From: an uncultured Aquimarina sp.
GTDB lineage: Bacteria; Bacteroidota; Bacteroidia; Flavobacteriales; Flavobacteriaceae
Assembly (NCBI GenBank): GCA_947498785.1
Contig: CANMLS010000005.1
Coordinates: forward strand, 150,951-214,950
Direction of reading: 5' to 3'
DNA length: 64,000 nucleotides
This document shows positions 9,164 to 29,300 of this stretch, piece after piece; the first letter of the stretch is position 1, and the number at the start of each line of letters is the position of its first letter. The notes beneath the pieces are model-generated. The model saw only the letters and a list, made by a program, of their open reading frames with translations. It did no database searches and had not been told where the DNA came from. The position numbers were made by a program, and so were the translations under genes.

Positions 9164-9271
9164 TTAATTGTTTTTTTATTATAATTATTCCATCAGTTAA
9201 ATGAACACCAATAATTGGTATAAGCGCTCATTTTAATGTCATTTATAGCTTTTTATGTATATTTTGTTTGA

Positions 9272-9664: not shown

Positions 9665-9693
9665 TGACCTAATGGTTTTCTCATTGTTAATTT

Positions 9694-10050: not shown

Positions 10051-10350
10051 TTTTTTCGAAGTTACTTATATTTATAGGATATACATACACATGTATGGTT
10101 TGTTGCTTGGTTAGGTACAATGATTTAGTAACTACAAATTAAATAGAAACTACTCAAGAATTTTCTTTAGTATGCTAGAGTTAATAAATTATCCACGTTT
10201 CGGGTGCATAGTATAGATATCTTTTATTTATCGTGTCGAATTACTCAATATTAGATTTTCTTTTTACTTTTTTGATGGTATAGTAGGCTCAAACTTGAAT
10301 TTCTATACATTAATCGATTCTGGTTAAATTAGATATTGAAACGATTATCT

Positions 10351-10875: not shown

Positions 10876-11606
10876 GGATTATCGCTTTTCTTTAATTGTT
10901 CATAGGGATTAATAAGTAGCTTTCTGGTAGTTCTTTATTTGAAGAAAAATTATTTACTCAATAATATTCAAAATCGAAAGGCTTTGACCATTTATAATTC
11001 ATATCGGGGAGAAATTTATTATAAATATAGAGATAATCAAAATCAAAATTTTTAAACCCTTTATAAATAAATTTCAACATTAAAATAGAATGGAAAGACT
11101 CTTTTTTGACATCATCAATGAATAGAACCATTAGATAGGCTTTTTCGGAAATTTGTGATTATACTGATACACTAAATTTCTATTGTGTTCATGTTTTTAT
11201 AGATTACTTTTTTTGTTAACCAAATGTTACTTGTCGGTTAAAAAAGTATCATGATTAGGATGTTATGATAATTTAAATATCTGATTTTGAGCGTTTTGTA
11301 AAATTTTACTATTTACATTTTTTTAAGTACGGTTTTACCTCAAACATCCTATTAATTAAGATTTGTACATTTGAATAGCTTTTGAGAAAACAATTTTTCA
11401 TTTAAGCAGAGTGACATAATTACCTCATTACTTTTATAACAAAAAGATTAATTAAACGCAATAAATTTCTGCTTAGTTAGTCTACTTTCAAAATTATTTT
11501 TAATAATCTTGATTCGCAAAAAATCTTACCAAAAAGGGATTGTGAGTCATATGGCGAAGCTTTATCCTCGATCTAATAAACTTTTATAATCTTAAAACCA
11601 AAGAAT

Positions 11607-12131
11607 ATGTGTATCAGTAAACCTGGCCAATGGTATGTGCTATATGTAAAAGCGCGTCATGAACGAAAAATAGAAAGCCTGTTGAAAGAAAATCAGATAG
11701 AGACATTTTTACCATTAGTTAAAACAGTTCGAAAATGGAGTGATCGAAAAAAAGAGATAGAAGCACCTTTATTTCCCTCTTATGTTTTTGTGAAAATTAA
11801 TTTAAAGAAAGATGCACATAAAGTTTTATCAGTTAGATCCTATTGCTTTTTTATTCGTTTCGGAGATGAATTTGCTAAAGTACAGGAAAGAGAAATAGAC
11901 TCGATTAAACATCTTATAAAAATGAATGTTCCTCTAAAAGTAGAAAATTATACACCGTCAGTAAAAGTAGGTGAACATAGAAAAATAAATAAAGGTGTAC
12001 TAAATGGTTTAAACTGCGAAATTCTTAAAGCTAATAATGAAAATAAAATCGTAGTATTCATTGATTCTATAAAACAAAATATTGTAGCAACAGTACCATC
12101 GTCTTACATTTCTGAAATGGTTGTTGTCTAA
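11607..12131 (+). CDS. NusG-paralog / UpxY-family transcription antitermination protein (NGN + KOW)
   Basis: NGN domain pattern WYVLYVKARHERKIESLLKENQIETFLPLV...RKW.DRKK.IE.PLFPSYVFVKI. C-terminal KOW-like VKVGEHRKINKGVLNGLNCEILK. It is the first gene of the co-directional cluster. Confidence 0.8.
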   Translation: MCISKPGQWYVLYVKARHERKIESLLKENQIETFLPLVKTVRKWSDRKKEIEAPLFPSYVFVKINLKKDAHKVLSVRSYCFFIRFGDEFAKVQEREIDSIKHLIKMNVPLKVENYTPSVKVGEHRKINKGVLNGLNCEILKANNENKIVVFIDSIKQNIVATVPSSYISEMVVV

Positions 12132-12557
12132 GTGAATTTTAATGATATAAAGGTTCAGAGAGTATAAAATTATTTGACTAATCTAGTAATCCAAGCTGGA
12201 TCGGTTGTCTAAATCTTTATGAGTTGATACTTTTTAAAATGTAACAAACTATATAGATTAACAAAACAGCAAACTTCATAACGTTGGGTAAAGCATTTAC
12301 TTCCTAATCTTATTACCCGAAGCATTTTTTAAGCATGTTTCAAGACAAAATTGCTTGAGGATATGGATGTATACTTTACTGTTTTTTTGAGAAAGTAAAG
12401 CTCAAAGGAACTCAAATGTCAGATACACAATAAAATTATATATAAAGTAGGTAAAAATCATTGGTTTTTACACTATCATCAATATAACTGCACAAACACT
12501 TTAACATATTATATCAGGATCATCAAACAGGGGTCTGATTATTAACTCTTTTTATTT

Positions 12558-13556
12558 ATGACTATGGAACTAATTGAAAAAATAAGTAAAATCGAAAAAT
12601 TTATTGGTAATACAAAAACTTACCAATTGGATTATGACCGTTCTAATCTTTTTGCAAAATTGGAATATGGAAGTTTTATGGGAAGTATAAAAGATCGACT
12701 TGCATTTTATACAGTAAGGCAAGCAATACTAGATGGTTATATAAATAAAGATACTACCGTTATAGAATCTTCTTCAGGAAATTTTGCAGTAGGTTTAGCT
12801 GGAATTTGTAAGTGTTTAGGACTTAAATTTATTGCAGTTGTAGATCCTAACATTACAGAAGAAAAAGAAAAACATCTTTCTTTTTTAGCACATGAAACTA
12901 TTAAAGTTCAGAAAAGAGATCAATATGATTCTTATTTACTTACCAGAATCGAATTGATTAACAAAATCCTAAAAGAGAATGATAATTATTTTAATATCAA
13001 TCAGTATAAGAATGTTAATAACTATTTGTGCTACTACAATACAATGGCAAATGAAATCATTAGGGATTTCAAAAGACTAGATTATCTTTTTATAGCTGTA
13101 AGCACAGGGGGTACAGTAACAGGGTTATCATTAAAATTGAAAGAGCATTATCCAAACATTAAGATAGTTGCTGTAGATATAGAAGGGTCAATCATATTTA
13201 GTGATGTGGTTAAAAAGAGGATTATTTCAGGAATGGGAGCGAGTAGAAAGAGCAATTTTATAGAGAAAGGAAAGCTAGATGAAGCAATTATTCTTCCTCA
13301 AGATGAGATCATGCAGGGATGTCTTGATTTGCTGAAAGAGCAAATGGTATTTGCTGGAGGATCCTCTGGGGCGGTATACGTAGCGGCCAAAAAATTACTG
13401 GAGAAAGAAAATAATTCTGATTTGAACGCCTTAATTATATGCCCCGATAGAGGACATGCTTATATAGATAGTATTTATAAAAGAATAGATAACAAAACCC
13501 TTGAAAAACAAAAAGAGTTTTCTGAACCACAACTAGAATACGAGTCATTAGTATAA
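12558..13556 (+). CDS. sbnA: PLP-dependent SbnA-like enzyme (first step of L-2,3-diaminopropionate synthesis)
   Basis: Cysteine-synthase fold with the PLP lysine in FMGSIKDR. ESSSGNFAVGLA, YLLTRIE...NQYKN and VSTGGTVTG track S. aureus SbnA as I recall it. It is paired with an SbnB-like gene. Confidence 0.8.
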   Translation: MTMELIEKISKIEKFIGNTKTYQLDYDRSNLFAKLEYGSFMGSIKDRLAFYTVRQAILDGYINKDTTVIESSSGNFAVGLAGICKCLGLKFIAVVDPNITEEKEKHLSFLAHETIKVQKRDQYDSYLLTRIELINKILKENDNYFNINQYKNVNNYLCYYNTMANEIIRDFKRLDYLFIAVSTGGTVTGLSLKLKEHYPNIKIVAVDIEGSIIFSDVVKKRIISGMGASRKSNFIEKGKLDEAIILPQDEIMQGCLDLLKEQMVFAGGSSGAVYVAAKKLLEKENNSDLNALIICPDRGHAYIDSIYKRIDNKTLEKQKEFSEPQLEYESLV

Positions 13557-13603
13557 AAAGTATTAAAAGAAAATAAAAGATAACCTATCAATATTATAGT
13601 ATA

Positions 13604-14563
13604 ATGATTTACTTAAACGAAAAAGATTTGTTTACAATTGGACTTAACTGGAAAGAATTTACAGAAACAATCAGAGAAGGAGTACGTTGTTTACATCAAG
13701 GAGAAAGTGTACAGCCAATCAAACCATATTTAAGGTTTAAAGACATCAAAAATAGAATTATTGCTATGCCTGCATATCTAGGTAATAATTTTGATGTAGC
13801 CGGAATTAAATGGATAGCAAGCTTTCCTGATAATATCAAAAAAAATAAAGCAAGAGCAAATTGTGTTACCATCTTAAATCATGCAGATACTGGAGAACCA
13901 ATCTGTATTATTAATACCCAACTTATTAGTGTATTAAGAACAACTACAGTAAGTAGACTAATGATCGAAGAGTATTGTTCTTTGAAGAAAATACAAAACC
14001 CTAAAATTGGAATTATAGGGTTTGGACCAATAGGAAAGTATCATTTAGCAATGTGCCAGGACTATTTTAAAGATGACAATGCAGAGTTTTTTATTTATGA
14101 TCTTAATGGAGTACACCCGAAAGATATAGAGATGTACGATAATGTAACCGTTGTTGATAATTGGTATAGTGCATATAAAGATGCAGATGTTTTTATGACA
14201 TGTACAGTTTCTAACGAAAGGTATATTGATAAAAAACCAAAAGAAAACTCACTACACTTGAATGTTTCATTAAGAGATTATAAAACAGAACAGATTGAAT
14301 ATTTTAAAGATGGTATAATAGTAGATAAGTGGAAAGAGATTTGCAGAGAAAATACAGATATCGAAGCTATGCATAAAGAGCGTAATCTCGTTGAAGCTGA
14401 TGTGAAATCTATAGAAGATGTTGTAATCAATAAATGTTTAAAAAATATGATAGATAAAACGGCTATTCTATTTAATCCTATGGGAATGGCAATTTTTGAT
14501 ATAGCTCTAGGACATTATTTCTACAATAAATCAAAAGAACTAGAGGTAGGAGCAGTTTTATAA
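13604..14563 (+). CDS. sbnB: Ornithine cyclodeaminase/mu-crystallin family SbnB-like NAD-dependent dehydrogenase (second step of L-Dap synthesis)
   Basis: VQPIKPYLRF...NRIIAMPAYLG...AGIKWIASFPDN, the Rossmann motif IGIIGFGPIGK, and LFNPMGMAIFDIA match the SbnB pattern (QPLKPYLR...RIIAMPS..GIKWI...LLNPMGMAIEDI). Confidence 0.8.
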   Translation: MIYLNEKDLFTIGLNWKEFTETIREGVRCLHQGESVQPIKPYLRFKDIKNRIIAMPAYLGNNFDVAGIKWIASFPDNIKKNKARANCVTILNHADTGEPICIINTQLISVLRTTTVSRLMIEEYCSLKKIQNPKIGIIGFGPIGKYHLAMCQDYFKDDNAEFFIYDLNGVHPKDIEMYDNVTVVDNWYSAYKDADVFMTCTVSNERYIDKKPKENSLHLNVSLRDYKTEQIEYFKDGIIVDKWKEICRENTDIEAMHKERNLVEADVKSIEDVVINKCLKNMIDKTAILFNPMGMAIFDIALGHYFYNKSKELEVGAVL

Positions 14564-14819
14564 TATTTTTAATAAGAAAGGTGTCCCGTTTTTAATTCAT
14601 TGTACTAGCATTTTTGAGAAAATATAAATCTTTCTCACTCTTCAATTCCTTAATTCATAAACATTGTTTTTATACTTAACAGAGTATAAAAGAAATATCG
14701 TATCAACAATAATTTTTGCATTGTCAAGCAGTAGCGTAGTTGTCCTATAGCACATTATAATAGGTTGTACGATGATTACATGTGTAAAGAAGTTAAAATA
14801 ATAATTAAAAAACTAAAAA

Positions 14820-16208
14820 ATGAGCTCACTTAAAAAATATCATTTATCAGAAACATCAAAAATAGTTTCATCTTCTGTACCAGGAGAAAAATCAAAATTT
14901 TTATTAGATCTGCAAAAAGACATAGAAAGTAGTGTGGTTTCATATCCTATAAGTATGCCTATTGCTATAAAAAGGGCTAAAGGAAGTATTATCGAAGATG
15001 TTGATGGAAATCAATTTATAGATTTTTTTAGTGGATGTGGTGTTTTAAATGTAGGACATAGTAATGATTTTGTTTTAGAATATGTAAAAAAACAACAATC
15101 AGAATTAATTCATGCCTTAGATTTTCCTACAGAAAATAAGCTTTTGTTAATTAAAAAAATAATTAGTCATTTACCAGAAAATATTAGAAATGATTATAAA
15201 GTAAGTTTTGGTGGCCCGACAGGTTCTGATGCTGTTGAAGCGGCAATAAAGTTAGCAAAAATCAAAACGGGAAGAGATGGTATAATTGCTTTTACAGGAG
15301 GTTACCATGGGATGACTTCTGGTGCTTTGGCTGTGACTTCTGATACCTTTTTCAGAAATAATTTAACATCCCTGATGCCTAATGTTCATTTTGCACCTTA
15401 TAATTATCCATACAGAAGTACATCCAATACAACCCATGAGATAGATGGTATAGCTTACTTAAAAAATATACTTACAAACAGCCATTCAGGAATATCTAAA
15501 CCAGCTGCAATTCTTGTAGAACCCATTCAGGGAGAAGGAGGAAATATCGTACCAGAAGATGGCTATCTAGAAGAACTAGTAAGAATTGCCCATGAAAATG
15601 ATGTATTGGTCATATTTGATGAAGTACAGTGTGGTTTTTTTAGAACAGGTAGTTTTTTAGAATTTATGAATACAAATGCTGTACCCGATATTATCACTTT
15701 TTCTAAAGGTTTTGGTGGAATTGGGTTTCCAATTTCGGGATTAATTTATAAAAAAGAAGTTGAAGCCTGGGGGCCTGCAGCGCATATAGGAACTTTTAGA
15801 GGAAATCAGGTAAGTATAGCCGCAGCAAGAGGAGCCTTTGATTTTATTGAGACATATAATATAGAAGAGCATACTGTATTGATAGGTTCCTATTTATTAG
15901 AGAAATTAAAAGAATTGGAAGAAGAAAATCCATTTATAGGAGAAGTACGAGGAAGAGGAATGATGATTGGTGTAGAACTCGTAAAAGATAAAAAAACCAA
16001 GGAACCTTTTCCAGAATTCATGAAAAAATTCAGATCTCAATGCTTTCAAAGAGGTTTATTATTCGAAGTAGGAGGACATTATAATAATGTATTACGGCTG
16101 GTTCCTCCATTAGTTACTACATATAACATTGTAGACGAAGCAATAGCTATTATGAAAGAAGCTATAGCTGTTTGTATGGAAGAATATTTAGAACCTACTC
16201 TAGCTTAA
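14820..16208 (+). CDS. Class-III PLP aminotransferase, diaminobutyrate-2-oxoglutarate transaminase-like (EctB/PvdH-type)
   Basis: IESSVVSYPISMPIAIKRAKG resembles the EctB N-terminal ES.VRSY.R.FP motif. Other matches are GVLNVGHSN, FTGGYHG, FDEVQCGFFRTG and the PLP lysine in TFSKGFGG. Confidence 0.75.
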   Translation: MSSLKKYHLSETSKIVSSSVPGEKSKFLLDLQKDIESSVVSYPISMPIAIKRAKGSIIEDVDGNQFIDFFSGCGVLNVGHSNDFVLEYVKKQQSELIHALDFPTENKLLLIKKIISHLPENIRNDYKVSFGGPTGSDAVEAAIKLAKIKTGRDGIIAFTGGYHGMTSGALAVTSDTFFRNNLTSLMPNVHFAPYNYPYRSTSNTTHEIDGIAYLKNILTNSHSGISKPAAILVEPIQGEGGNIVPEDGYLEELVRIAHENDVLVIFDEVQCGFFRTGSFLEFMNTNAVPDIITFSKGFGGIGFPISGLIYKKEVEAWGPAAHIGTFRGNQVSIAAARGAFDFIETYNIEEHTVLIGSYLLEKLKELEEENPFIGEVRGRGMMIGVELVKDKKTKEPFPEFMKKFRSQCFQRGLLFEVGGHYNNVLRLVPPLVTTYNIVDEAIAIMKEAIAVCMEEYLEPTLA

Positions 16209-16229
16209 ATCCTAATAAAACAAATAATA

Positions 16230-17990
16230 ATGTCACTCATGAAATCGTCTGTTCCAGAAAGTATACCCATTGAAAAAACACTAATAGAAATATTTGAAGC
16301 ACACCTGAAGCGATCACCAAACAAAATTCTGTATAGATTCTTGGCAAATGGAGATGAAGAAAGCGATTCGAGAACGTATCAGGAATTATATAATAGAGCT
16401 CAAATTATAGCATCTCATATTTTAGAATATGTCAATCAGGGAGACCGTGTTCTATTATTGTTTCCCTCTGGACTAGATTTTACAGACGCTTTTTTTGGCT
16501 GCCTACTTGCAGGAGTTATTGCAGTTCCTGCTTTTCCTCCTCAAGGGAAGCGAAGAATAGGCAGATTAGAAAAAATAGTTTCAGATTGTAATGCTAGTCT
16601 TGTTTTAACCAAAGAAGGAATTTATGAAAAAACTAAGACATGGTTTGATTCAGAATTAGATTGGCTTAAAACAGATATTATAGGTAATCATATTGAGAGA
16701 AAACTACCTGTTATTAGCTCAGATACCATTGCTTTTTTACAATATACTTCTGGATCGACAGGAAACCCGAAAGGGGTAATTGTAGATCACTCTAATATAA
16801 TCCATAACAGCGAATTGTTTAAAAAATGTTTCCAAACAGATGCTAAATCTGTTGGAGTTTCATGGCTTCCGATATATCATGATATGGGATTAATAGGGAA
16901 CGTAATTCAAGCATTTTATGTTGGGTTTGAGCTTATTATAATGCCTCCAGTGGCATTTGTTCAAAAGCCAGTTAGGTGGTTAAAAGCATTTTCAAAATAT
17001 AGAGGAACGATTAGTTGCGGGCCAAATTTTGCATATGATTTATGTACAAACCAAATAAGAAACGAGGATTTAGAAGGAATAGATTTAAGTAGTTGGCGGG
17101 TAGCGATTAATGGATCAGAACCTATTCGTCCTGATACTTTTGAAAAGTTTGCTTTACGATTCGAAAAATACGGTATTCAAAAAAAAACCTTATTTCCTGG
17201 ATATGGACTAGCAGAGGTCACACTAACTGTAAGCGGATGTAAGTTTGATGGCTTTCCAGTAACGTTAGAACTAGAAAAGAAGAGTTTTAAAAATAAAGAG
17301 ATAAAAGTTCTAACATCTTCTCAAAGTCAAAATGACACGATACGATTAATGGGAAATGGACCTGTGATAGATGGTTTGATTGTGAAAATTGTAGATCCAA
17401 AAACAAAGAAGGTTTGTGATAAAAATCAGATAGGTGAGGTCTGGATCAGTGGAGCGAGTGTTGCAAAAGGATATTGGGAAAAAGAAGAGACTACAAAAGA
17501 AATTTTCCATGCATTTCCCAAGGATACTAAGGGAGTAGAAAATAAAGAAGAAGGTCCTTTTCTACGTACAGGAGATATGGGATTCCTTTATGATGGAGAA
17601 CTCTATATCTCTGGTCGTTTAAAGGAGATGATCATTTTTAATGGGGTTAATTATTATCCACAGGATTTAGAACGTACCGTACAATACTCTCATTCAGATC
17701 TACAAAACAATGCAGGAGTAGTATTCTGTACAAATATAGATGAACAAGAAAAGTTAATAGTAGTACAAGAAATTAAACGAACAAGTATACGAACGTACAA
17801 TCGAGAATCTTTAGTACAAAGTATTTGTCAATCCATATTAGAAGAACATGAACTACCAGTTTATAGTATTATTTTAATTAGTCCAGGGCGAGTATCCAAA
17901 ACTTCGAGTGGTAAAATTCAACGTTTAGCCACTAAGTTGGCCTATGAATCTGATACTCTCGATGGAGTAATTGATTCTTGGAAAAGAGGA
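16230..17990 (+). other. Fatty acyl-AMP ligase (FAAL) domain
   Basis: AMP-binding cores LQYTSGSTGNPKG, YGLAE, GDMGF and GRLKEMII, with a FAAL-style N-terminus (TLIEIFEAHLKRSPNKILYRFL). Approximate boundaries. Confidence 0.8.
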
Positions 17991-20900
17991 GTGGTTTTAG
18001 AAGGAGAACATATGCCGATTTCTGAACAAATGTTATATAAGAATAGTAATTATCTTATAACATGGCTTCAGGAACGTATTTCAGAAGAATTAAAACTAAC
18101 TCCTTCACAAATTCAGATACACAAACCTTTTGCAGAATTAGGAATGACTTCTTTACAAGGTATTCGATTATCGGGGTTATTGTCTGAATATTTAGATCGA
18201 GATATTTCTCCAACATTAATATATAGTTATTCAACTATAACTGATTTGGTAACCTATTTGTTAGAGGAAGAAAAAAGTGTTCTTGAGACTCATGAACAAA
18301 AAGATTTCTTAAAAAATGAGCCCATAGCTATTATAAGTATGGCATGTCGGTTCCCAGGAGCAGAGAATGTTCAAGAATTTTGGGAAAATCTAATATCTGC
18401 AAAAGATGCAATTAAAGAAGTTCCTAATGATAGATGGGATATAGACGAATTGCATGGAGATATTTTGGATGGACATAACATGAATACTCGTTGGGGAGGG
18501 TTTATAAACGATGTATCAGAATTCGATGCAGATTTTTTTGATATCACTCCGCAAGAGGCCAAAAAAATGGATCCTCAACAGCGTATACTATTAGAGTTAA
18601 GTTATCATTTATTAGAAAATTCTCGTAATGATTTAGAATCATTTAAAGGAACAAATACAGGTGTTTTTATTGGGATAAGCCAGAATAGCTATAATGATTT
18701 GATTAAAAGCAGCAAACAAGATAAGAATGTGTATTCGGGTTTAGGAAGTGCTTTAAGTATTGCCGCTAATCGGTTGTCTTATTATTATAATTTTAGTGGA
18801 CCCAGTATGGCTATAGATACAGCGTGTTCTTCTTCGTTGGTAGCTGTTGATACAGCAGTAGAAAAATTACGTAAAGGTAAGTGCGATATGGCAATTGCTG
18901 GAGGTGTTAACTTAATCATATCTCCAGAAATAACAATTGCTCTATCCCAAGCTGGAATGATGTCTACAGATGGTAGATGTAAAACATTTGATAGTAGTGC
19001 TAATGGATATGTTCGTAGTGAAGGTTGTGGATTAGTATTGTTAACTACTTTATCTAAAGCACAAAAAGGAGGTCACAATATATTGGGAGTAATAAAAGGT
19101 AGTGCTGTTAATCAAGATGGACATAGTAATGGATTATCAGCTCCCAATGGTTTGGCTCAGGAATCAGTCATGAAAAAAGCACTACAAGATGCTCAAGTCA
19201 CTCCAGAAACTATAAGCTACATAGAAACTCATGGTACAGGAACCTCACTTGGTGACCCTATAGAAGTAAGTTCAATAAACAAAGTTTATAATGTAAATCG
19301 TTCTAAAAAAGATCCGCTATACCTCGGAGCAGTTAAAGCCAATATAGGACATCTGGAATCTGCTTCAGGAATTGCGGGACTTATTAAAGCCGTATTTTGT
19401 TTACAGTATAAAAAAATTCCTGCCCAACTTCATTATAACAATCCCAACCCACATATTAACTGGGAAAATATGCCTGTAGCCATTTCCAGTAAAACTATGG
19501 AATGGAATGCTATTGAGGAAAATATGGTAAAAAGAGCAGGTGTTAGTTCTTTTGGTTTTGGAGGTACCAATGCCCACTTAATTCTTGAAGAAGCACCAGA
19601 AGTAACTAAAAAAGAATTAGAAGAAAGTAATTTATCACGAACGTTTCACTTAATTACAATATCAGCAAAAAAAGAAACAGCATTAGATCATCAGGTTGAT
19701 CGAATTCTTAAATATGTTGAAGAAAATCCTAAAATATCGTTAAGTGATTTAGCGTATAGTTTAGCCGTTACCAGAACACATTATAAAAATCGCTTGGGAA
19801 TTATCTGTAAAAACATAGATGATGTTAAAAACAAACTCAATTCGGAAAAACTAGTCATAAAGGATAATATTAAAAATAAAATAAAATTTAAAATAGCCTT
19901 TTTATTTACTGGTCAAGGTTCTCAATATATTAATATGGGTAAATCCTTATATTTTAATGAACCAGTCTTTAAAGAAGCTCTTGATCAATGTTCCTTCCTT
20001 TTAACCTCTTATCTAGAAGAAGATATATTAGAAATTTTGTTCTCTGAAGAGAGAAGTTCAAAAGCTGAATTATTAGATCAGACAGCATATACACAACCAG
20101 CGCTATTCTCATTAGGGTATGCATTATATAAATTATGGCAAAATTGGGGAGTACAGCCAGATGTAATATTGGGCCATAGTATTGGAGAAATTACAGCAGC
20201 TTGCATCGCAGGAGTTTTTACATTGGAAGAGGCTATTAAGTTAGTAGCGTCTAGAGGAAAACTAATGCAGGAACTTAAAGAAAAGGGTATGATGGTTTCT
20301 GTAAGATGTGATAAAGATGTGATTTCGAAATTTATTCATAAGTATGAAGGTAGGATATCCATAGCAGCAATTAATACTCCAAATCAAACAGTAATATCAG
20401 GATGTTCAAAGGCAATAAAAGAATTGCAGGAAGAACTGACTACAGAAGAAATAAAATACAAACAACTTAAGGTTTCAAATGCATTCCATTCACCCCTTAT
20501 GAAACCTATGCTATCATCATTTCTTGCCATTGTAAATACTATTGAATTTCAATCACCTACATATAAAATAATAAGTACTGTATCAGGAAAAGTGGCGGGA
20601 AAAGAAATCAGTACACCAGAGTATTGGGTTGATCATATAAGTGCCCCTGTTGATTTCTTACAGGCAATGACTTTTTTAAACAAAGAAGAAGAAGCAACCA
20701 TATTCATAGAATTGGGCCCGCACCCTGTATTGATACCCATGGGAATTCATTGTATAGAAGATAGTAATAGAATCCATTGGTTACCTTCTCTCAAAAAAGA
20801 AAAAAATGAAGAACAACAAATGATAGAAAGTTTAGGAAGATTGTATAACGCAGGTGGTCAGCTGAATTGGAACGGGTTTTATGCAAACAGAAATGTGAAT

Positions 20901-23900
20901 AAGGTTGATTGTCCAACATATGCTTTTCAACGAAAACGATTCTGGTGTGAAAAAGAAGGTAGTGAGTATACACAGAATAAAAGCGATAACAAATTAATTA
21001 ATCAAGAAAATCAAAATTCTATGTCTATAGTATTTAAAGATATTGAAAATCGATTGCGAACAATGATTTCACAGACTTTACAAATAGATTCAAATGAGAT
21101 TTCTTTAAATGCTTCATTACTTGAGCTTGGTGCAGATTCTTTAGTTTTAATAGAATTTATAAATAAGGTACAAAAGGAATATAGAGTACCTATATCGATA
21201 CGTAATTTGTTTGAAGAATTAAATAATCTGGAAGCGTTAATTGATTATATCATAACGAATACAAAGACTAAAGAAAAGAATATTTTAAAAGTTGGTAGTG
21301 ATAAAAAAAGGGACACTTATTCTAAAGAAAACGAGATTAGCTCAAATAATTTCTATAGTTTAAATGAACCTTCCTTGGATGTCCTACATATTTTGAGGAG
21401 TCAGTTTGAAGAACAAAATAAAATACTATCAGAATATCTCAATCTTTCGGATACATCCTCTTTGAAAAGAAAAGATATTGATGAAATATATAGAGTTTCA
21501 GCAACACAATCAAATACTGCTAATGATGTAAAATTGGGAAGTTCAAAACCAAAAGGAGTTTTACCATTCTTTGCACAGGAAGCAGTATACTTCAGTAAGT
21601 TTCCAGATAATCAAAAAGAAAGTTTACCTGAGTTAATTAATAATTATGTTAATAAAACGGAAAATTCAAAGGCTTATGCATCATACTATCAGAATGTGTT
21701 AGCGGATTCTGGATCAGCTTTTAGGTTTAATATTGCAACCAAAGAGATGATTTATCCGATTATAAGTAAGAAGGCATCTGGTTCCAAATTCATAGATATT
21801 GATGGTAACGAATATATTGATATCATTATGGGATTTGGTTCCTGCATATTTGGACACCAACCAGATTTTATTAATAAAGCATTTCATGATCAATTAGATA
21901 AAGGAATTAACATAGGACCGTTTTCTAACCTGTCTGGAGAAGTAGCAACACTTGTTTCAGAATTAACAGGAATGGAGAGAGTATGCTTTGCTAATACAGG
22001 AAGTGAAGCAGTTTCATTCGCATTGCGATTGGCTAGATCCGTTACGAGGAAAAGAAAGATAGTTATTTTCTCAGGATCATATCATGGGCATGCGGATATT
22101 GTGTTAGGTGTATCTGGAGCCATAGATGGAGAAACTGATCCTATGGTTGAAGGAATAACCAAAAACGCAGTTCAGGATTTGATCGTTTTAAATTATTCTG
22201 ATGATAACATCGTCGAAGAAATTAGAAAATATGCAGATGATATTGCCGGTGTTCTTGTTGAACCAGTAAGAAGTAGATATCCTGATTTTCAACCAAAAGA
22301 AATATTGCATGAATTAAGAGTGGTGACAAAAGAGTTGGACATACCACTAATTTTTGATGAGATGATTACTGGTTTTAGAATTATGCCAGGAGGAGCACAG
22401 GAGTATTTTGGAATTAAAGCAGATATCGCTACTTATGGTAAAATAGTAGGAGGAGGAATGCCTATTGGTATTGTTGCTGGGACTAGAAAATATTTAGATG
22501 CAGTAGATGGGGGGAGTTGGAAATTTGGAGATGATTCTTATCCTAGAGTGAGTAGAACTTTTGTTGCAGGAACTTTTACGAGGCATCCATTAACGATGGC
22601 GGCTTCTAGAGCAGTACTTACAAGAATAAAAGAGATAGGTGCAAAAGCTTATTTAGATTTGAACAAAAAAACAGAAGAATTGGTAAACCGTTTAAATGAT
22701 TATTTTAAACAAGAAACATTACCAATTAAGATGGTTCGTTTTGGTTCTTTGTTTGCTATCAAAAATACAGGAGTGGCAGACGTTTTGGTTTTTTATCTTC
22801 TACAAAAAGGAATCTACGCTTTATCCTCGAATAATTTGTTTTTAACATTTGCTCACTCTAAAGAAGATATAGAAAAAATTTATGAAGCAATATGTAAAAG
22901 CGCTCAAAAAGCATATAATGGAAGTGAAAGTATAGATTCGAAAGTGACCTCACAAAGGGGGAGCAAAAACCAAAAAACATCCAAAATAGATTTGACTCTG
23001 GCTCAAAAACAATTATTTCTACTAGATCAAATTGACTCCAAACGATCTTTAGGATATATTCAGTGTTTCAGCTTAAAAATGATAGGGGAATTAGATTTGA
23101 AAATATTAAATGAAGCTGTAAATCATTTATTAGAAGAACATCCAATTCTGAGAAGTAGGATTTCTAAAAATGGAGAATCTTTAATATTTGATGAATCAAT
23201 ATTTTTAGAAATAGAGAAAATTGATTTATCTCAATATAACAGTAATAATAAAGAGAATTATCGATTATTTATAAATGAAAATTTAAAGACCTCTTTCTCT
23301 TTGAATAAAGGTCCTCTAATTCGACTTCAGTACATACAATTTTCTGAAAAGGAGCACATTTTGATAGTTACTATCAATCATATTATTTCAGATGGATGGT
23401 CCTGTACAGTGTTTGCCAAAGAATTAATAGAAAATTATAAGAAATTGTATTCAGGTGAAAAATTGAATTATTCGCCAAAAATACAATTCTCTTCATATGT
23501 TGATTGGTTAAGTCAATATAGAAAAAGTGAAAAATGGGAAAGTCATGAATCCTATTTTTTAGATAATTTTAGTAACAAGGATTTTGGATTATCCTTACCA
23601 TCAGATACCACCTATGGTAATAAAGGAGAAATTAGCTCTGTTTTTTTTAGAATTGAAAAAAGCGAGGTAAAAACGTTTAAAAAGTGGAGTATAGAAAATG
23701 GATTAACTCTATTTATGACATTTTTGTGCTCGTTTGAGTTATTGCTTTTCAGGTTATGTAGACAGCAAGAGATTGTTTTAGGAATATCAGTAGGAGGTCG
23801 TTCTATGCCTGATATGGATAGAACAATAGGTTATTTTGCACACATCATTCCATTATTCTCAAGATATAGAGAAGAAAAGAAAATAACAAATTATCTACAG

Positions 23901-26138
23901 GAATTTAAAGATAGAGTGATTGATGCTTTTGAACATCAAGATTATCCTTATGCAGATTTTATCACACTAATGCAAAGAGAGAAAGGAAGAGCATACCAAG
24001 GAATACAGGCAGAATTTAACTTTGATGTTGCTATTGGAGATATAGAAATGGAAGGGTTAGAATTGACTTTTGAAGAACATAAACCTTTTTATCGCGATTT
24101 TGATTTAACCTTAAATGCCAGAGAGCAAAATGGGGATATAGTGTTAAGTCTGGATTATCAGAAATCTTTGTGGAGTAATCATTTGGCAAATGAGGCTTTA
24201 GATTGTTTTAAACACATACTGTATCAGCTAATACAAAACAGAGAAATAAGGTTACTTGATATAGACTTATTGTCACAAAGCAAAAAAGACCAGATTTTAT
24301 ACGAATTTAATGATACCAAAACAGATTATCCGTTAGATAAAACATTGGTTGATTTACTAAAAGAAAAGGCAAAACAAATTCCAGATAAAATAGCAATTGT
24401 ATTTGAGGAAACAACTCTTACATACAAGGAGTTGGATGAAAAATCAAACCAGCTAGCTCATTATTTAAGAGAAAGAGGAATAAGAGAAGACGTTTTGATT
24501 CCAATTTGCTTAGAACGTTCTATAGAAATGGTTATTGCCATATTAGGGGTCTTTAAATCTGGAGGAGCTTATGTTCCTATGAAACCAGATTATCCCGAAT
24601 CTCGGATACATTATATTTTAAAAGAAATCCAAGCAACAATCATACTTACAGATAAGAGTACTAGTTTGATTGTTTCTAAAAGTGATGAGGTAGAAGTTTT
24701 CAGAATAGATAATGAAGAAGCTCTATTGGAACGCTATCCGATTACATCATTAAACATAACAATTTCGCCGAGTTCATTATCGTACGTAATCTATACTTCA
24801 GGCAGTACAGGGAAGCCTAAAGGGGCAATGATTGAACATCGAGGGATGCTAAATCATCTGCTCGCAAAAATAGATGGTTTAGGGGTTACTTCAGATAGTA
24901 TAGTGGCTTTTACAGCTCCATTTACATTTGATATATCGGTATGGCAGATGTTCAGCGCTTTGCTAATGGGTGGAAATATAGTGATTTATAAAGAAGAAAT
25001 GATCTATGAGCCTACCTCGTTATTAACTTCTATAAAAGAAAATAATGTAAACATACTTCAACTGGTCCCTTCGTATGTTTCTGAAATATTGAATATAGAT
25101 TCAGAAAATGTACTTAATCAACTCAATTATTTTATTGTAACTGGAGAGGCTGTTTCACCAGCACTACTATCTGATTGGTTTAATAAATATCCCAAAGTCC
25201 CTGTGGCAAATGCTTATGGACCTACCGAAGCTTCAGATGATGTGAGTACTCATTATATGAATCAGACTCCAGATGTAGTTAATGTTTCTATTGGTAAACC
25301 TATGTCTAATCTACAATTGTATGTAGTTGACTCATCGTCAAACTTATGCCCTGTTGGAGTTCAAGGAGAATTGTGGGTTTCTGGTATAGGGGTAGGAAGG
25401 GGATACCTTAATGATGAAGAAAAAACCAAGAAAAGTTTTATAGACAATCCATTTGTAGAAGGAGAACGAATTTATAAAACGGGAGACCTGGCGCGATGGT
25501 TACCAGATGGCAGTTTAGAATATTTGGGAAGGATTGACAATCAGGTGAAAGTTAGAGGTCATAGAATTGAATTAGGAGAAATCGAAAATTTATTATCAAA
25601 ATCAAGAGCAGTAAAGAGTTGTTGTGTTCTAGCCAAGAAGGATCATAGAGGAAGTAATCGTTTGATTGGTTATGTGGTTTCTGAAGAAGAATTTGACAAG
25701 TACAACTTACAAAACTATCTAAAATCAAAACTACCAGAGTATATGGTGCCAGGATTGTGGATAAATCTGGATGTAATGCCATTAACAGCCAATGGAAAAA
25801 TTGATAGAAAAGCTCTTCCAAATCCCGATGAATCAGAGTTTTCGGCACAAGAATATACAGCTCCTACAAATGAAACCGAATCTCAATTGGTTATGATCTG
25901 GCAGAATTTATTGGGAATTGATAAAATAGGAATTCACGACGACTTTTTTGAATTGGGGGGACACTCATTATTAGCAACACGATTAGTATCAGAACTTCGA
26001 AAATCAATGAAAGTTGAACTGACCATAAAAGACATTTTCGAGTTTGCTACAATAGAACAATTAGCACTTTGTCTACAGTATGTTATAGATGAACAGAAAA
26101 AGGATAAAAAAGAATATAAACTAACTATTGAACTGTAA
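16230..26138 (+). CDS. Hybrid loading/PKS/NRPS megasynthase: FAAL-ACP-KS-AT-ACP-aminotransferase-C-A-T (3302 aa)
   Basis: Uninterrupted 9.9 kb ORF. Core motifs of every domain are listed in the domain entries below. Confidence 0.95.
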   Translation: MSLMKSSVPESIPIEKTLIEIFEAHLKRSPNKILYRFLANGDEESDSRTYQELYNRAQIIASHILEYVNQGDRVLLLFPSGLDFTDAFFGCLLAGVIAVPAFPPQGKRRIGRLEKIVSDCNASLVLTKEGIYEKTKTWFDSELDWLKTDIIGNHIERKLPVISSDTIAFLQYTSGSTGNPKGVIVDHSNIIHNSELFKKCFQTDAKSVGVSWLPIYHDMGLIGNVIQAFYVGFELIIMPPVAFVQKPVRWLKAFSKYRGTISCGPNFAYDLCTNQIRNEDLEGIDLSSWRVAINGSEPIRPDTFEKFALRFEKYGIQKKTLFPGYGLAEVTLTVSGCKFDGFPVTLELEKKSFKNKEIKVLTSSQSQNDTIRLMGNGPVIDGLIVKIVDPKTKKVCDKNQIGEVWISGASVAKGYWEKEETTKEIFHAFPKDTKGVENKEEGPFLRTGDMGFLYDGELYISGRLKEMIIFNGVNYYPQDLERTVQYSHSDLQNNAGVVFCTNIDEQEKLIVVQEIKRTSIRTYNRESLVQSICQSILEEHELPVYSIILISPGRVSKTSSGKIQRLATKLAYESDTLDGVIDSWKRGVVLEGEHMPISEQMLYKNSNYLITWLQERISEELKLTPSQIQIHKPFAELGMTSLQGIRLSGLLSEYLDRDISPTLIYSYSTITDLVTYLLEEEKSVLETHEQKDFLKNEPIAIISMACRFPGAENVQEFWENLISAKDAIKEVPNDRWDIDELHGDILDGHNMNTRWGGFINDVSEFDADFFDITPQEAKKMDPQQRILLELSYHLLENSRNDLESFKGTNTGVFIGISQNSYNDLIKSSKQDKNVYSGLGSALSIAANRLSYYYNFSGPSMAIDTACSSSLVAVDTAVEKLRKGKCDMAIAGGVNLIISPEITIALSQAGMMSTDGRCKTFDSSANGYVRSEGCGLVLLTTLSKAQKGGHNILGVIKGSAVNQDGHSNGLSAPNGLAQESVMKKALQDAQVTPETISYIETHGTGTSLGDPIEVSSINKVYNVNRSKKDPLYLGAVKANIGHLESASGIAGLIKAVFCLQYKKIPAQLHYNNPNPHINWENMPVAISSKTMEWNAIEENMVKRAGVSSFGFGGTNAHLILEEAPEVTKKELEESNLSRTFHLITISAKKETALDHQVDRILKYVEENPKISLSDLAYSLAVTRTHYKNRLGIICKNIDDVKNKLNSEKLVIKDNIKNKIKFKIAFLFTGQGSQYINMGKSLYFNEPVFKEALDQCSFLLTSYLEEDILEILFSEERSSKAELLDQTAYTQPALFSLGYALYKLWQNWGVQPDVILGHSIGEITAACIAGVFTLEEAIKLVASRGKLMQELKEKGMMVSVRCDKDVISKFIHKYEGRISIAAINTPNQTVISGCSKAIKELQEELTTEEIKYKQLKVSNAFHSPLMKPMLSSFLAIVNTIEFQSPTYKIISTVSGKVAGKEISTPEYWVDHISAPVDFLQAMTFLNKEEEATIFIELGPHPVLIPMGIHCIEDSNRIHWLPSLKKEKNEEQQMIESLGRLYNAGGQLNWNGFYANRNVNKVDCPTYAFQRKRFWCEKEGSEYTQNKSDNKLINQENQNSMSIVFKDIENRLRTMISQTLQIDSNEISLNASLLELGADSLVLIEFINKVQKEYRVPISIRNLFEELNNLEALIDYIITNTKTKEKNILKVGSDKKRDTYSKENEISSNNFYSLNEPSLDVLHILRSQFEEQNKILSEYLNLSDTSSLKRKDIDEIYRVSATQSNTANDVKLGSSKPKGVLPFFAQEAVYFSKFPDNQKESLPELINNYVNKTENSKAYASYYQNVLADSGSAFRFNIATKEMIYPIISKKASGSKFIDIDGNEYIDIIMGFGSCIFGHQPDFINKAFHDQLDKGINIGPFSNLSGEVATLVSELTGMERVCFANTGSEAVSFALRLARSVTRKRKIVIFSGSYHGHADIVLGVSGAIDGETDPMVEGITKNAVQDLIVLNYSDDNIVEEIRKYADDIAGVLVEPVRSRYPDFQPKEILHELRVVTKELDIPLIFDEMITGFRIMPGGAQEYFGIKADIATYGKIVGGGMPIGIVAGTRKYLDAVDGGSWKFGDDSYPRVSRTFVAGTFTRHPLTMAASRAVLTRIKEIGAKAYLDLNKKTEELVNRLNDYFKQETLPIKMVRFGSLFAIKNTGVADVLVFYLLQKGIYALSSNNLFLTFAHSKEDIEKIYEAICKSAQKAYNGSESIDSKVTSQRGSKNQKTSKIDLTLAQKQLFLLDQIDSKRSLGYIQCFSLKMIGELDLKILNEAVNHLLEEHPILRSRISKNGESLIFDESIFLEIEKIDLSQYNSNNKENYRLFINENLKTSFSLNKGPLIRLQYIQFSEKEHILIVTINHIISDGWSCTVFAKELIENYKKLYSGEKLNYSPKIQFSSYVDWLSQYRKSEKWESHESYFLDNFSNKDFGLSLPSDTTYGNKGEISSVFFRIEKSEVKTFKKWSIENGLTLFMTFLCSFELLLFRLCRQQEIVLGISVGGRSMPDMDRTIGYFAHIIPLFSRYREEKKITNYLQEFKDRVIDAFEHQDYPYADFITLMQREKGRAYQGIQAEFNFDVAIGDIEMEGLELTFEEHKPFYRDFDLTLNAREQNGDIVLSLDYQKSLWSNHLANEALDCFKHILYQLIQNREIRLLDIDLLSQSKKDQILYEFNDTKTDYPLDKTLVDLLKEKAKQIPDKIAIVFEETTLTYKELDEKSNQLAHYLRERGIREDVLIPICLERSIEMVIAILGVFKSGGAYVPMKPDYPESRIHYILKEIQATIILTDKSTSLIVSKSDEVEVFRIDNEEALLERYPITSLNITISPSSLSYVIYTSGSTGKPKGAMIEHRGMLNHLLAKIDGLGVTSDSIVAFTAPFTFDISVWQMFSALLMGGNIVIYKEEMIYEPTSLLTSIKENNVNILQLVPSYVSEILNIDSENVLNQLNYFIVTGEAVSPALLSDWFNKYPKVPVANAYGPTEASDDVSTHYMNQTPDVVNVSIGKPMSNLQLYVVDSSSNLCPVGVQGELWVSGIGVGRGYLNDEEKTKKSFIDNPFVEGERIYKTGDLARWLPDGSLEYLGRIDNQVKVRGHRIELGEIENLLSKSRAVKSCCVLAKKDHRGSNRLIGYVVSEEEFDKYNLQNYLKSKLPEYMVPGLWINLDVMPLTANGKIDRKALPNPDESEFSAQEYTAPTNETESQLVMIWQNLLGIDKIGIHDDFFELGGHSLLATRLVSELRKSMKVELTIKDIFEFATIEQLALCLQYVIDEQKKDKKEYKLTIEL
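18040..18270 (+). other. ACP 1 (phosphopantetheine Ser codon 18150-18152)
   Basis: FAELGMTSLQGIRL. Confidence 0.8.
18318..19600 (+). other. Ketosynthase (KS) domain, active-site Cys codon 18825-18827
   Basis: EPIAIISMACRFPG, DTACSSSL, ETHGTGTSLGDPIE, NIGHLESASG and GFGGTNAHLILEE. Confidence 0.9.
19890..20945 (+). other. Acyltransferase (AT) domain incl. linker, Ser codon 20178-20180, malonyl-type motif
   Basis: FLFTGQGSQY, GHSIGE, and VSNAFHS (HAFH-like, so malonyl-CoA is predicted). Confidence 0.8.
21030..21260 (+). other. ACP 2 (Ser codon 21138-21140)
   Basis: LLELGADSLVLIEF. Confidence 0.8.
21690..22920 (+). other. Embedded PLP aminotransferase (AmT) domain, glutamate-1-semialdehyde aminomutase-like; Lys codon 22440-22442
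   Basis: FIDIDGNEYIDIIMGFGSCIFGH, ANTGSEAVSFALRLAR, FSGSYHGH, FDEMITGFR and ATYGKIVGGGMP. This matches the position and type of the AMT domain in mycosubtilin MycA / iturin ItuA. Confidence 0.8.
22990..26080 (+). other. NRPS module 1: C (His motif NHIISDG at 23376-23396) - A (code DIWQITADDK, diamino-acid-like) - T (Ser codon 25965-25967)
   Basis: LTLAQKQLFLLDQ, NHIISDGWS, SYVIYTSGSTGKPKG, FTFDISVWQ, NAYGPTEASDD, GRIDNQVKVRG and FFELGGHSLLATRL. Confidence 0.8.
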
Positions 26139-26148
26139 TTGTAAGCAA

Positions 26149-26330
26149 ATGAAAAATAATGTTTTTGATATTTTAAAAAGAGCAAATAAAGAAGGAATAA
26201 GAATAGAATTGACGAATAATTCTTTGAGTATAAAATCAGAAAATGAAAAGATTGATTCTGAATTGCTTAAGGATATAAAATCATACAAAACATCAATTGT
26301 TGATCATTTAAAGAAATACAAAAATGAATT
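26149..26330 (+). other. TubC-type N-terminal docking domain
   Basis: VFDILKRANKEGIRIELTNNSLSIKSENEKIDSELLKDIKSYKTSIVDHLKKY fits the L..L...G..L...G..L.......L...I...K..I...L pattern. Confidence 0.6.
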
Positions 26331-29300
26331 TAAAACTCCTTCAATAATTTCATCAATTGGGGCCTATGATCGAGCGACTATAAACAAAATTCCACTATCA
26401 TTTAACCAGGAACGTTTATGGTTCATAGATAAATTACAAGAAGGAAGTGCAGAATATCATATGCCTTTGATATTAAAACTAAAAGGTAATATTAATGAGG
26501 CTGTACTAGATTCGGCGTTGCAAGAGATTATTTCTAGACATGAAATATTGCGTACTACAATATATACAGAAGAAGGTATAGGATATCAGTTAATAAAATC
26601 CATAGACCAATGGAGGTTAATATTTCAGACATATCATAAACATGTAGAGATAGAAGAAGCTATAGAGGCATTTGTGAAGACTCCATTTGATTTGTCCCAA
26701 GACTATATGGTTAGAGCTTGCCTATACAGGTTAAATCAAGAAGAGTGTTTTTTGGCTTTAGTGTTTCATCATATTGTAGCAGATGGATGGTCACATAGTA
26801 TTATTATTAAGGAATTTAACGAACTGTATAATGCACGTCTGAAGCAGAGATCACCAAAATTAGAACCATTACCTATTCAGTATGCAGATTATGGGATATG
26901 GCAGAAGAGTTATTTTGATGAGGTAGAATTAGAAAAGCAACTAATATACTGGAAAACTCAACTCAGAGAGGTGTCCAACCTGATATTACCTCTAGATTAT
27001 AAACGCCCATCTGTACAAAGTACAAAAGGAGCAAGTTATTCTTTTAAGTTAGATGATGAACTGTGTCAGGAAGTAATACAATTATCAGATCAGGAAGGGG
27101 TTACATTGTTTATGTTATTATTATCCGCTTTCAAAATAGTATTACACAGGTATAGTGGTCAGGATGATATCTGTATAGGAACTCCCATTGCTAATCGAAC
27201 AGTAGCAGAATTAGAAGGTTTAATTGGTTTTTTTGTTAACACATTGGCAATTAGAAGTGATTTTAGTGATGATCCGACATTCATCGATATATTAAAGAAA
27301 GTTAAGAAAACAATGCTTAATGCTTATGAATATCAAATGGTTCCATTCGAAAAAGTGGTAGATGCTGTTGTGGGTACACGGGATATGAGTATTAGCCCTT
27401 TGTTTCAGGTAATGTTTGCATTACAGGATACTCCAGAAGAAATCGTATTAGATGGAGTCGATATCTCTATTCATGAGTATAAGAACTCAACATCAAAGTT
27501 TGATTTTACAATGGTGGTTATAAATAACCAGTCCAGCCTTTCTCTCGAAGTAGAGTACTGCACTGATCTATTTAAAGAAAGTACAATTCACCAAATGATA
27601 GTACACTATCAGCAAATTTTAAAGAGTATTGTTAAAAACCCTAAAGAACGTATAGGATTATTACCAATGTTAACTACAACCGAAGAAGAGCAATTACTAG
27701 CTGCTTTCAATGCTACCCAAGTTACATATCCAAAAGATAAAACTATAGTAGATCTGTTTGTAGATCGGGTAAACAAACAACCTGAAAATATAGCAATTGT
27801 ATGTAATAATAGGCATATTACCTATAAAGAGCTAGATGAAGCGTCTAGTCGTTTGGCAAATTTTTTATGGTCAAATTATGATATAGCTAAAGAAGATTTA
27901 ATTGGAGTAAAACTAGAACGAAGCGAATGGTTAATCATAGCTTTTCTTGCAGTTTTAAAAACAGGAGCTGCTTATGTTCCTATAGATCCTAACTATCCAA
28001 AGGAAAGAATAGCATATATCGAAAGCGACAGTAACTGTAGTGGTATTATTGATGACAATTTACTCCAGAAATTCATACAAAATGAAGAATCATATCATAC
28101 CGAATTACCTCAAATCGATATAGAAACTAACAACTTGGCCTATGTTATATATACATCTGGTTCTACAGGCAAACCAAAAGGGGTATTGATAGAACATAGG
28201 GGTATTATAAATACAATATTATCTCAAATAAATGATTTTTTTATTAAAAAAACAGATCATTGTTTACAATTTTCGAACCAATCATTCGATGCCTCTATTT
28301 GGGAAATATTGATATCATTATTAGGAGGAGCAAAGCTTTTTATAATAGATGAAAATGTAAAATCTGATACTAATCAGTTTGTAGAATACATTCAGGATAA
28401 TAAGATAACTTTTGCTACGCTACCTCCCGCATTTTTAAAACTAATCGATTGTGAACAGATACAATGTATTAATACATTAATTACCGCAGGAGAAGAAGCT
28501 CCATTAGAGCAGGTAAAAAAAATCTCAAAGTCTGGAACATACATTAATGCTTACGGTCCTACAGAAACAAGTATATGCGCAACTACTTATAGAGGAAATA
28601 TTACTTCTTCTGTCCCAATAGGAAAACCAATCTCTAATACAGAAACATACATTTTGGATAAAAATCAACAATTGTTGCCTATTGGATGTGTTGGAGAATT
28701 ATGCATTTCGGGCAATGGTTTGGCAAGAGGATACTTAAATCAAGAGGCATTAACCAATGAAAAATTTATACCTAATCCATTTTTTGCCCGAGATAGGATA
28801 TACAGAACCGGGGATTTAGCAAAATGGTTACCTGATGGTAATATTGAATTCATAGGAAGAGCAGATAATCAGGTTAAGATTAGAGGGTATCGAATAGAAT
28901 TAGGAGAGATTGAAGGTGTATTGCATGAAATACCAGAAATAGACCAATCTGTTGTTTTGGCAAAAGAAGATGTAAGCGGCAATAAACGTCTGGTTGGTTA
29001 TGTGGTTACCAAAAAAGTGTTTAATAAAGAATTAATAGAGGAACAATTAAAATCAAAATTGCCAGAGTATATGGTGCCAAGATTATGGATATCATTAGAT
29101 ACAATACCAATAACTTCAAATGGTAAAGTTGATAAGAAGAATCTTCCAGATCCTGATATGTCCAATTATGCAACTGCTGCATATGTTGCACCAAGAAACG
29201 AAACAGAAGAACAATTGGTTACTATTTGGGAGGCATTGCTGAATACTAATACTATAGGGATACATGATGATTTTTTTGAGTTGGGAGGGCACTCTTTGTT

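Follow-up and report, generated by a model that had tools for sequence, protein, structure and literature searches.

Does the large megasynthase gene in this stretch of Aquimarina DNA start its product with a beta-amino fatty acid, in the manner of MycA and ItuA of Bacillus? The stretch, referred to here as the window, comprises 64,000 nucleotides from an uncultured Aquimarina sp. (contig CANMLS010000005.1 of assembly GCA_947498785.1), and an earlier note, made from the letters of the window, had proposed that it does. We consider it likely that the gene specifies a MycA-like route, in which a fatty acyl-AMP ligase (FAAL) would load a fatty acid, a single malonyl extension would yield a beta-ketone, an aminotransferase (AmT) would transaminate it, and the resulting 3-aminoacyl chain would be condensed onto the first residue of a peptide. 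The domain architecture itself is already known; what is new is an orthologue in Aquimarina sp. Aq78 that carries a ketoreductase (KR)-type block in place of the AmT-type one.

The initiation gene is a single uninterrupted open reading frame (ORF), in which Pfam places the FAAL, an acyl carrier protein (ACP), a ketosynthase (KS), an acyltransferase (AT), a second ACP, the AmT, and then condensation (C), adenylation (A) and peptidyl carrier protein (PCP) domains, with three PP-binding copies in all and domain E-values of 1e-50 to 1e-147, far past chance level. The order FAAL-ACP-KS-AT-ACP-AmT on one polypeptide, as previously read from the sequence, is therefore recovered by domain HMM assignment, and all of the motifs quoted at the time are found in the translation at the mapped positions. 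The span then proposed, 16230-22920, begins correctly at the ATG, but the AmT finishes at 22920, after which the polypeptide runs on with C-A-PCP. Pfam matched no KR, dehydratase (DH), enoylreductase (ER) or monooxygenase family in the ORF, in agreement with the earlier statement that KR, DH and ER are lacking; the luciferase-like monooxygenase PF00296, which several homologues possess, was among the families without a match. Homologues were sought with aa 1-2240 as query, and the top 120 matches were considered. The features of the gene are as follows.

16230-26138, + strand: initiation megasynthase ORF, ATG start, 3302 aa, uninterrupted.
16230-17969, + strand: FAAL domain (Pfam AMP-binding and AMP-dom_DIP2-like C-terminal subdomain, aa 1 to ~580; NCBIfam).
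18042-18269, + strand: ACP1, phosphopantetheine Ser in GMTS at aa 641 (PP-binding; motif kept in homologues P0002 and P0005).
18318-19436, + strand: KS with Cys-His-His triad (ketoacyl-synt E=5e-92, Ketoacyl-synt_C E=1e-41; aa 697-1069); DTACSSS at aa 863, HGTGT at aa 1001, NIGHLE at aa 1038; KS-AT linker at aa 1072-1204.
19899-20816, + strand: cis-AT, apparently of malonyl type (Acyl_transf_1 E=8e-56; aa 1224-1529); GHSIGE at aa 1315 with Ser1317, Arg1342, QTAYTQPALF, and NAFH in NAFHS at aa 1417.
21051-21251, + strand: ACP2, GADSL, proposed carrier of the beta-keto and then the beta-amino chain (best PP-binding stretch, aa 1608-1674).
21636-22919, + strand: AmT (Aminotran_3 E=6e-50; aa 1841-2221); Asp2043 in FDEMITGFR at aa 2042; YGKIVGGG at aa 2069, so that Lys2071 is the pyridoxal phosphate (PLP) lysine.
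22983-24299, + strand: C domain at the junction between the polyketide synthase (PKS) part and the nonribosomal peptide synthetase (NRPS) part, NHIISDG at aa 2383 (Condensation E=2e-77; aa 2252-2690).
24360-26084, + strand: A domain 1 (code DIWQITADDK, by GrsA alignment) and PCP (AMP-binding, AMP-binding_C and PP-binding; adenylation AMP-binding aa 2711-3190).

The evidence that carries the assignment comes from the AmT. Its best match among PDB sequences is the AmT of MycA (6KFM, 6KFR and the ACP-AmT didomain 6KFU; E=1e-127, 429 bits), to which it is 48% identical over 424 columns, with Lys2071 aligned with the lysine of MycA TYGK, the Asp of FDE(M/I)ITGFR likewise aligned, and the glycine-rich loop intact. 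It is thus a class-III PLP aminotransferase orthologous to that of MycA, complete with its Schiff-base lysine, and by sequence it groups with one biochemically characterised beta-ketoacyl-ACP transaminase, that of MycA, which moves the amine from Gln via PLP onto an ACP-bound beta-ketothioester (PMC3870968). The nearest AmT-type relatives (P0002, P0003 and P0004) are 63-67% identical in this domain; the domain appears to be under selection, because the ORF is intact and these relatives keep the PLP-lysine motif. A look-alike is HemL, which has the class-III fold in common and whose PLP-lysine and FDE.(M)TGFR motifs are almost the same, but the domain described here is embedded in a 3302-aa megasynthase and is far closer to the MycA AmT. 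An aminomutase or HemL paralogue is ruled out by the 190 bits of the best glutamate-semialdehyde aminomutase (GSAM) match among PDB sequences, against 429 for MycA, and by the score of 271 bits with the HemL equivalog TIGR00713 (cut-off 527); nor is this a stand-alone enzyme. The beta-amino interpretation is well supported by this homology, and neither of the sequence-based outcomes named beforehand as fatal to it, loss of the PLP lysine or grouping with non-transaminating relatives, came about: the lysine aligns, and MycA is the closest relative.

The domains ahead of the AmT agree with such a role. As in initiation subunits of the MycA/ItuA type, the protein starts with a FAAL and a carrier protein, and a condensing Cys-His-His KS precedes the AmT with no reductive domain between them. 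The best NCBIfam matches of the N-terminal domain are fatty-acid-AMP ligases (PRK05850, 405 bits; FadD32, 377 bits), as compared with ~158-307 bits for fatty acyl-CoA ligase families. The Phe of xAFH is a malonyl signature in AT domains, and judged by GHSIGE, Arg1342 and xAFH the AT is of malonyl type, as the earlier note had concluded. The Asn that leads NAFH is unique among the 120 homologues, 58 of which have HAFH.

Three observations, namely the order of the domains, catalytic motifs that are intact and an AmT whose closest homology is to that of MycA, are the basis from which we infer each of the chemical steps that follow, together with chain length, amine donor, residue assignments and release mode. 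The FAAL would adenylate a free fatty acid and load it onto ACP1; the KS would accept the acyl chain and the cis-AT would put malonate on ACP2, so that one decarboxylative condensation would give a beta-ketoacyl-S-ACP2. The MycA-type PLP domain would then convert the beta-ketone to a beta-amine, probably with an amino acid as donor, for example Gln, which MycA uses. The junction C domain would couple the 3-aminoacyl thioester, through its carboxyl, to the first residue, predicted to be short and cationic, of the 2,4-diaminobutyrate (Dab) or 2,3-diaminopropionate (Dap) type. Eight more modules and a thioesterase (TE) would complete the chain.

Several points weigh against this reading. The His-to-Asn changes in the AT (NAFH) and the C domain (NHxxxDG) may signify lowered activity. 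The SbnA, SbnB and diaminobutyrate-transaminase assignments of three genes upstream are best matches, each just below its cut-off. The specificities of the A domains are tentative readings from reference codes, of which only the Phe code, being that of GrsA, validates itself. All FAAL family scores of the N-terminal domain lie below the curated whole-protein cut-offs, because the domain is fused in a megasynthase. Those scores also leave some room for an alternative that we regard as improbable, namely that the N-terminal domain activates a short, branched or aryl acid, in which case the product would have a beta-amino acid without being an iturin-like lipopeptide; FAAL-family domains of natural-product pathways take C4-C34 substrates (Table 2 of PMC11837247). 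However, the top-scoring families are long-chain fatty-acid-AMP ligases, the layout agrees with that of many lipopeptide initiators, and no gene for an unusual starter acid is present in the cluster. It is more doubtful still that the AmT is present but inactive or skipped, leaving a 3-keto head or, after adventitious reduction, a 3-hydroxy one. The two unusual His-to-Asn changes in the adjoining AT and C motifs could be taken as drift at conserved positions, but the domain retains its PLP Lys, its Asp and an intact glycine-rich loop, it aligns over its whole length with the MycA AmT at the identity given above, the 3302 codons are unbroken, and there is no KR to form a hydroxyl.

The MycA-like route invites comparison with the systems after which it is named. 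MycA, ItuA and BmyA of Bacillus (mycosubtilin, iturin A and bacillomycin D) are likewise single polypeptides with FAAL, ACP, KS, ACP, GSAM-like AmT and C-A-PCP, and have in common the conversion of beta-ketoacyl-S-ACP to beta-aminoacyl-S-ACP (PMC3870968), which would apply to the AmT described here by homology. The peptide predicted from the window has nine residues and is cationic, in contrast to the Asn-rich heptapeptide of the iturin type. The Bacillus enzymes reportedly have no AT of their own, and FenF, ItuD or BmyD supplies the activity in trans, as Duitman in 1999, Tsuge in 2001 and Aron in 2007 are said to have described. The Aquimarina module is not of this AT-less kind: Acyl_transf_1 is present in cis together with a KS-AT linker, and the cluster contains no stand-alone FabD-like gene.

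The earlier note had singled out the fused AT as a departure, a view that does not hold, given that the layout occurs in many phyla, Flavobacteriia (Aquimarina muelleri and Gillisia) included, and was catalogued in 2013. Many homologues match the query over 98-99% of its length and show an identical set of Pfam domains, among them proteins of A. muelleri (57% identity), Gillisia, Fulvivirga, Saprospiraceae, Pseudoalteromonas (many), Methylococcaceae and Trinickia, as well as Nostoc, Tolypothrix, Pleurocapsa, Chamaesiphon, myxobacteria, Chloroflexi and Acidobacteria; the PLP-lysine motif is present in 74 of the top 120, nearly always behind FAAL, KS and AT, and the AmT carriers include Flavobacteriia, Cytophagia and cyanobacteria. 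In the 2013 survey, Pedobacter heparinus (Bacteroidetes) and Thiorhodococcus appear with the layout 'A-CP-KS-AT-CP-PLP1' (PMC3870968). The fused cis-AT layout is ordinary, and it is the AT-less Bacillus arrangement that is the special case.

Published examples of KS-AT-ACP-AmT include PuwE of puwainaphycin, LxaB/LxaE of laxaphycin, the microginin cluster, ChtnA of chitinimine and the dioxanopeptins, and RmyA of Ralstonia is another FAAL-KS-AmT case. The order KS-AT-ACP-AmT followed by NRPS C-A-T (T, thiolation domain), as in PuwE, LxaE, ChtnA and McyE, is found in the window protein, as is a malonyl-type AT. PuwE, LxaB/LxaE (laxaphycin/scytocyclamide) and MicA of microginin resemble it in that KS-AT-ACP-AmT acts on a FAAL-primed chain ahead of the NRPS, and proteins of Nostoc, Tolypothrix and Pleurocapsa have the identical fused FAAL-ACP-KS-AT-ACP-AmT-C-A-T at 41-43% identity. 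In the puw and lxa clusters, however, the FAAL and ACP (in lxa also the KS) are separate proteins, and enzymes of the PuwE and microginin type have an extra luciferase-like monooxygenase that leads to 3-amino-2-hydroxy acids. The window protein does not carry that domain and so differs from the makers of such acids (puwainaphycin, microginin and ralsolamycin type). ChtnA of Chitinophaga koreensis, described in 2026, has KS-AT-ACP-AMT, is proposed to convert a beta-ketothioester to a beta-aminothioester before the NRPS, and belongs to a pathway for which macrolactamisation by the TE is proposed (PMC13291983); such a role is likewise proposed for PuwE and LxaE, and also for the embedded AmT of DxpA, from the dxp family described in Proteobacteria (PMC12964715). 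The lipid of ChtnA and DxpA is of polyunsaturated-fatty-acid-synthase-like origin and is passed straight to the KS with no FAAL, whereas a FAAL is present here. ChtnA is from class Chitinophagia of the Bacteroidota, not Flavobacteriia. In the literature searched we found no characterised compound of Flavobacteriia made via beta-amino-acyl initiation, and the earlier note, which was aware of none, is not contradicted. The aquimarins, the known Aquimarina peptides, are C-terminally aminated by another route.

The comparison that brings something new is with Aquimarina sp. Aq78, whose protein P0005 is the second-best homologue (70% of the query covered, 71% identity) and has a KR in place of the AmT. 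The Aq78 locus (P0005, P0123; NZ_OMKA01000029) is collinear with 11209-56377 of the window at 75-83% nucleotide identity overall in blastn run against the Aq78 loci alone, with a break within the initiation gene. Nucleotide blocks and, below them, amino acid identities to P0005 are listed here.

11209-19593: blastn block, 83.5% to Aq78.
19594-24284, + strand: putatively exchanged block, AT-ACP-AmT-C here and AT-KR-ACP-C in Aq78.
24285-37915: blastn block, 78.4% to Aq78.
40472-46825: blastn block, 75.9% to Aq78.
46906-56377: blastn block, 75.3% to Aq78.
aa 1-1100: 58-93% per 100-residue window, mostly 76-93%, with 58% at aa 601-700 (ACP1).
aa 1101-1500: 46-52% per 100-residue window.
aa 1501-2700: 23-36%, effectively unrelated.
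aa 2701-3302: 70-91% per 100-residue window.

The two clusters are orthologous, as follows from the collinearity, from the gene order in both strains (UpxY, SbnA, SbnB, transaminase, PKS-NRPS, NRPSs, MFS, TEII) and from the identity of eight of the nine A-domain codes. The terminal NRPS is 2442 aa long in both and 49-85% identical throughout, TE included. FAAL-ACP-KS is 82% and A1-PCP 84% identical to Aq78 in amino acid sequence, and the change between these flanks and the centre is abrupt: in 90-nt windows identity falls from 81-89% to 44-64% over the left junction, right after the KS C-terminal motif GTNAHLILEE (~19593), and is back at 80% by the right junction, right before the A-domain start LYEFNDT (~24285). 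We lean slightly towards a single natural recombination that swapped AT-ACP-AmT-C and AT-KR-ACP-C, whose junctions would be the C-terminus of the KS and the C-A linker, the latter being a site chosen in the engineering of NRPS exchange units. Along with the beta-processing domain, the AT and the junction C domain moved as well, a joint move that would make sense if the donor site of the C domain matches the beta-substituent. That the difference instead reflects two paralogous clusters or faster divergence of the middle of the gene is hardly credible, for although the comparison covers the 64-kb window rather than the whole source genome and the flanks outside 11209-56377 are unrelated, identity shifts sharply, within ~90 nt, at two domain boundaries, the centres differ in domain content (ACP-AmT versus KR-ACP), and collinearity extends over the other 40 kb, where the regulator, the precursor genes, the transporter and the type II thioesterase (TEII) lie, with those eight codes identical.

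A natural block exchange could have run in either direction, from KR to AmT or from AmT to KR, and the region-by-region best-match tables fit both. After Aq78, the next closest relatives of FAAL-ACP-KS are the AmT-type P0002, P0003 and P0004 (58-60%) and that of A1-PCP is the KR-type P0038 (50%); the divergence of each cassette from its nearest relatives is roughly that of the flanks, and the database held no recent donor of the AmT block (best AmT 67%, best AT 53% identity). The KR motifs of Aq78, GGLGEIG and YAAAN, are intact, and from this KR its product is predicted to have a 3-hydroxy acyl head. If the exchange is real, the two strains would make near-identical lipononapeptides with 3-amino and 3-hydroxy heads, possibly closed as lactam and lactone respectively, and would constitute a natural demonstration that beta-carbon processing and the matched downstream C domain move as one evolutionary unit. 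The pair also marks natural cut sites, one behind the KS and one within the C-A linker, for conversion of 3-hydroxy to 3-amino or the reverse, and thus a template for KR-to-AmT swaps.

The C domain that moved with the block has NHxxxDG, as the earlier note had observed; the motif is indeed present, but its standing as a meaningful feature is not borne out. Among 58 scorable AmT-linked homologues the junction C domain has HH in 55, NH in two (the window protein and P0029) and another motif in one, and the other eight C domains and the epimerization (E) domain of the cluster all have HH. A candidate role for NHxxxDG as a signature of C domains that take beta-aminoacyl donors is ruled out by those 55 HH motifs. 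The second His of HHxxxDG is the catalytically important one, and it is retained together with the Asp; the Asn is, by this alignment, an idiosyncratic, lineage-specific substitution. The Asn codons at 20478-20480 (NAFH) and 23376-23378 (NHxxxDG) both lie in the exchanged block, and each is almost unique among the 120 homologues.

A second, smaller mosaic block relative to Aq78 lies at ~37916-40471 (+ strand), in module 5 of the NRPS encoded at 32624-46825. Module 5 has the Leu-like code DAWYLGNVVK here; in Aq78 it has the Phe code DAWTIAAICK and an extra E domain. The third NRPS gene is split in Aq78, into proteins of 2661 and 2617 aa.

The locus as a whole appears to be a complete marine-flavobacterial cluster with an antiterminator, Dap/Dab genes, one PKS and nine NRPS modules, an exporter, a TEII and a phosphopantetheinyl transferase (PPTase), and its remainder comprises the following.

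11607-12131, + strand: UpxY-family antiterminator (NCBIfam 131 bits, cut-off 100).
12558-13556, + strand: SbnA-like (NCBIfam 330 bits, cut-off 350).
13604-14563, + strand: SbnB-like (NCBIfam 281 bits, cut-off 327).
14820-16208, + strand: diaminobutyrate-transaminase-family enzyme, dat (NCBIfam 385 bits, cut-off 402).
26128-54230, + strand: three NRPS genes, modules 2-9, E after module 7, terminal TE (Pfam, motif map, A codes).
54355-57225, + strand: major facilitator superfamily (MFS) exporter, TEII and PPTase (Pfam; MFS and TEII collinear with Aq78).

SbnA and SbnB act in 2,3-diaminopropionate synthesis, and the SbnA-like, SbnB-like and Dab-transaminase-family genes imply a putative supply of Dap and Dab; these three and the UpxY gene are syntenic in Aq78. 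By the motif map, the cluster has nine A domains, a single E domain and, at its end, a TE. The specificity codes of the A domains, extracted by alignment to GrsA, are listed by module.

Module 1: DIWQITADDK.
Module 2: DAWTIAAICK, identical to GrsA-Phe.
Module 3: DIWQLTADDK.
Module 4: DFWNIGMVHK.
Module 5: DAWYLGNVVK.
Module 6: DIWQITADDK.
Module 7: DAWYLGNVVK.
Module 8: DAIWIGGTFK.
Module 9: DLTKIGHIGK.

By comparison with reference codes we tentatively take these to read X-Phe-X-Thr-Leu-X-D-Leu-Val-Asp, where X is presumably a short cationic residue, Dab or Dap. The code DIWQ[I/L]TADDK occurs in three A domains and has an acidic pair at positions 330/331. A reading of X as Dab or Dap fits the SbnA/SbnB-like and Dab-transaminase-family genes upstream. 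The predicted product is accordingly worded as 3-amino-acyl-X-Phe-X-Thr-Leu-X-D-Leu-Val-Asp, a cationic lipononapeptide that would be polymyxin-like, with a 3-amino acyl head. Candidate modes of release would be a macrolactam via the beta-amine, a ring via a side chain, or a linear product. As the TE is common to both strains, it would either take both O and N nucleophiles at C3, close the ring elsewhere (on the side chain of Thr or Dab), or let the chain go in linear form.

UpxY is best known from Bacteroides capsule loci. In the window the UpxY antiterminator heads a 45-kb secondary-metabolite operon, to which it appears to be dedicated, like LoaP in Bacillus, and it is kept in Aq78. The second and third megasynthases have N-terminal docking domains of the TubC_N type (26128-26330 and 32624-32790, + strand), and the C-terminus of the first is a Lys-rich tail, KKDKKEYKLTIEL, that Aq78 shares unchanged; this points to a conserved docking pair. 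The second NRPS is listed with a TTG start, which gives it an 11-nt overlap with the stop of the first gene (26128-26138).

Collinearity with Aq78 ends at the cluster edges; the flanks at 1-11208 and 56378-64000 are unrelated, and the genomic context of the cluster therefore differs between the two strains. The 876-aa BACON-domain protein of the window and the 875-aa protein encoded upstream of the cluster in Aq78 are not homologous. The G+C content of the window is ~32%; an Rfam scan of the whole window gave no match, and an 811-aa ORF at 6728-9163 (- strand) matched no Pfam family at E<=0.001. Sorting tails of the type IX secretion system (T9SS) and BACON domains are typical of Bacteroidota. 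The window encodes three secreted proteins that carry a C-terminal T9SS sorting domain, at 19-4311 and 59457-62087 (both + strand), two with Big_2 and CBM6/CBM35 and one with BACON, which suggests a polysaccharide-degrading Bacteroidota host.

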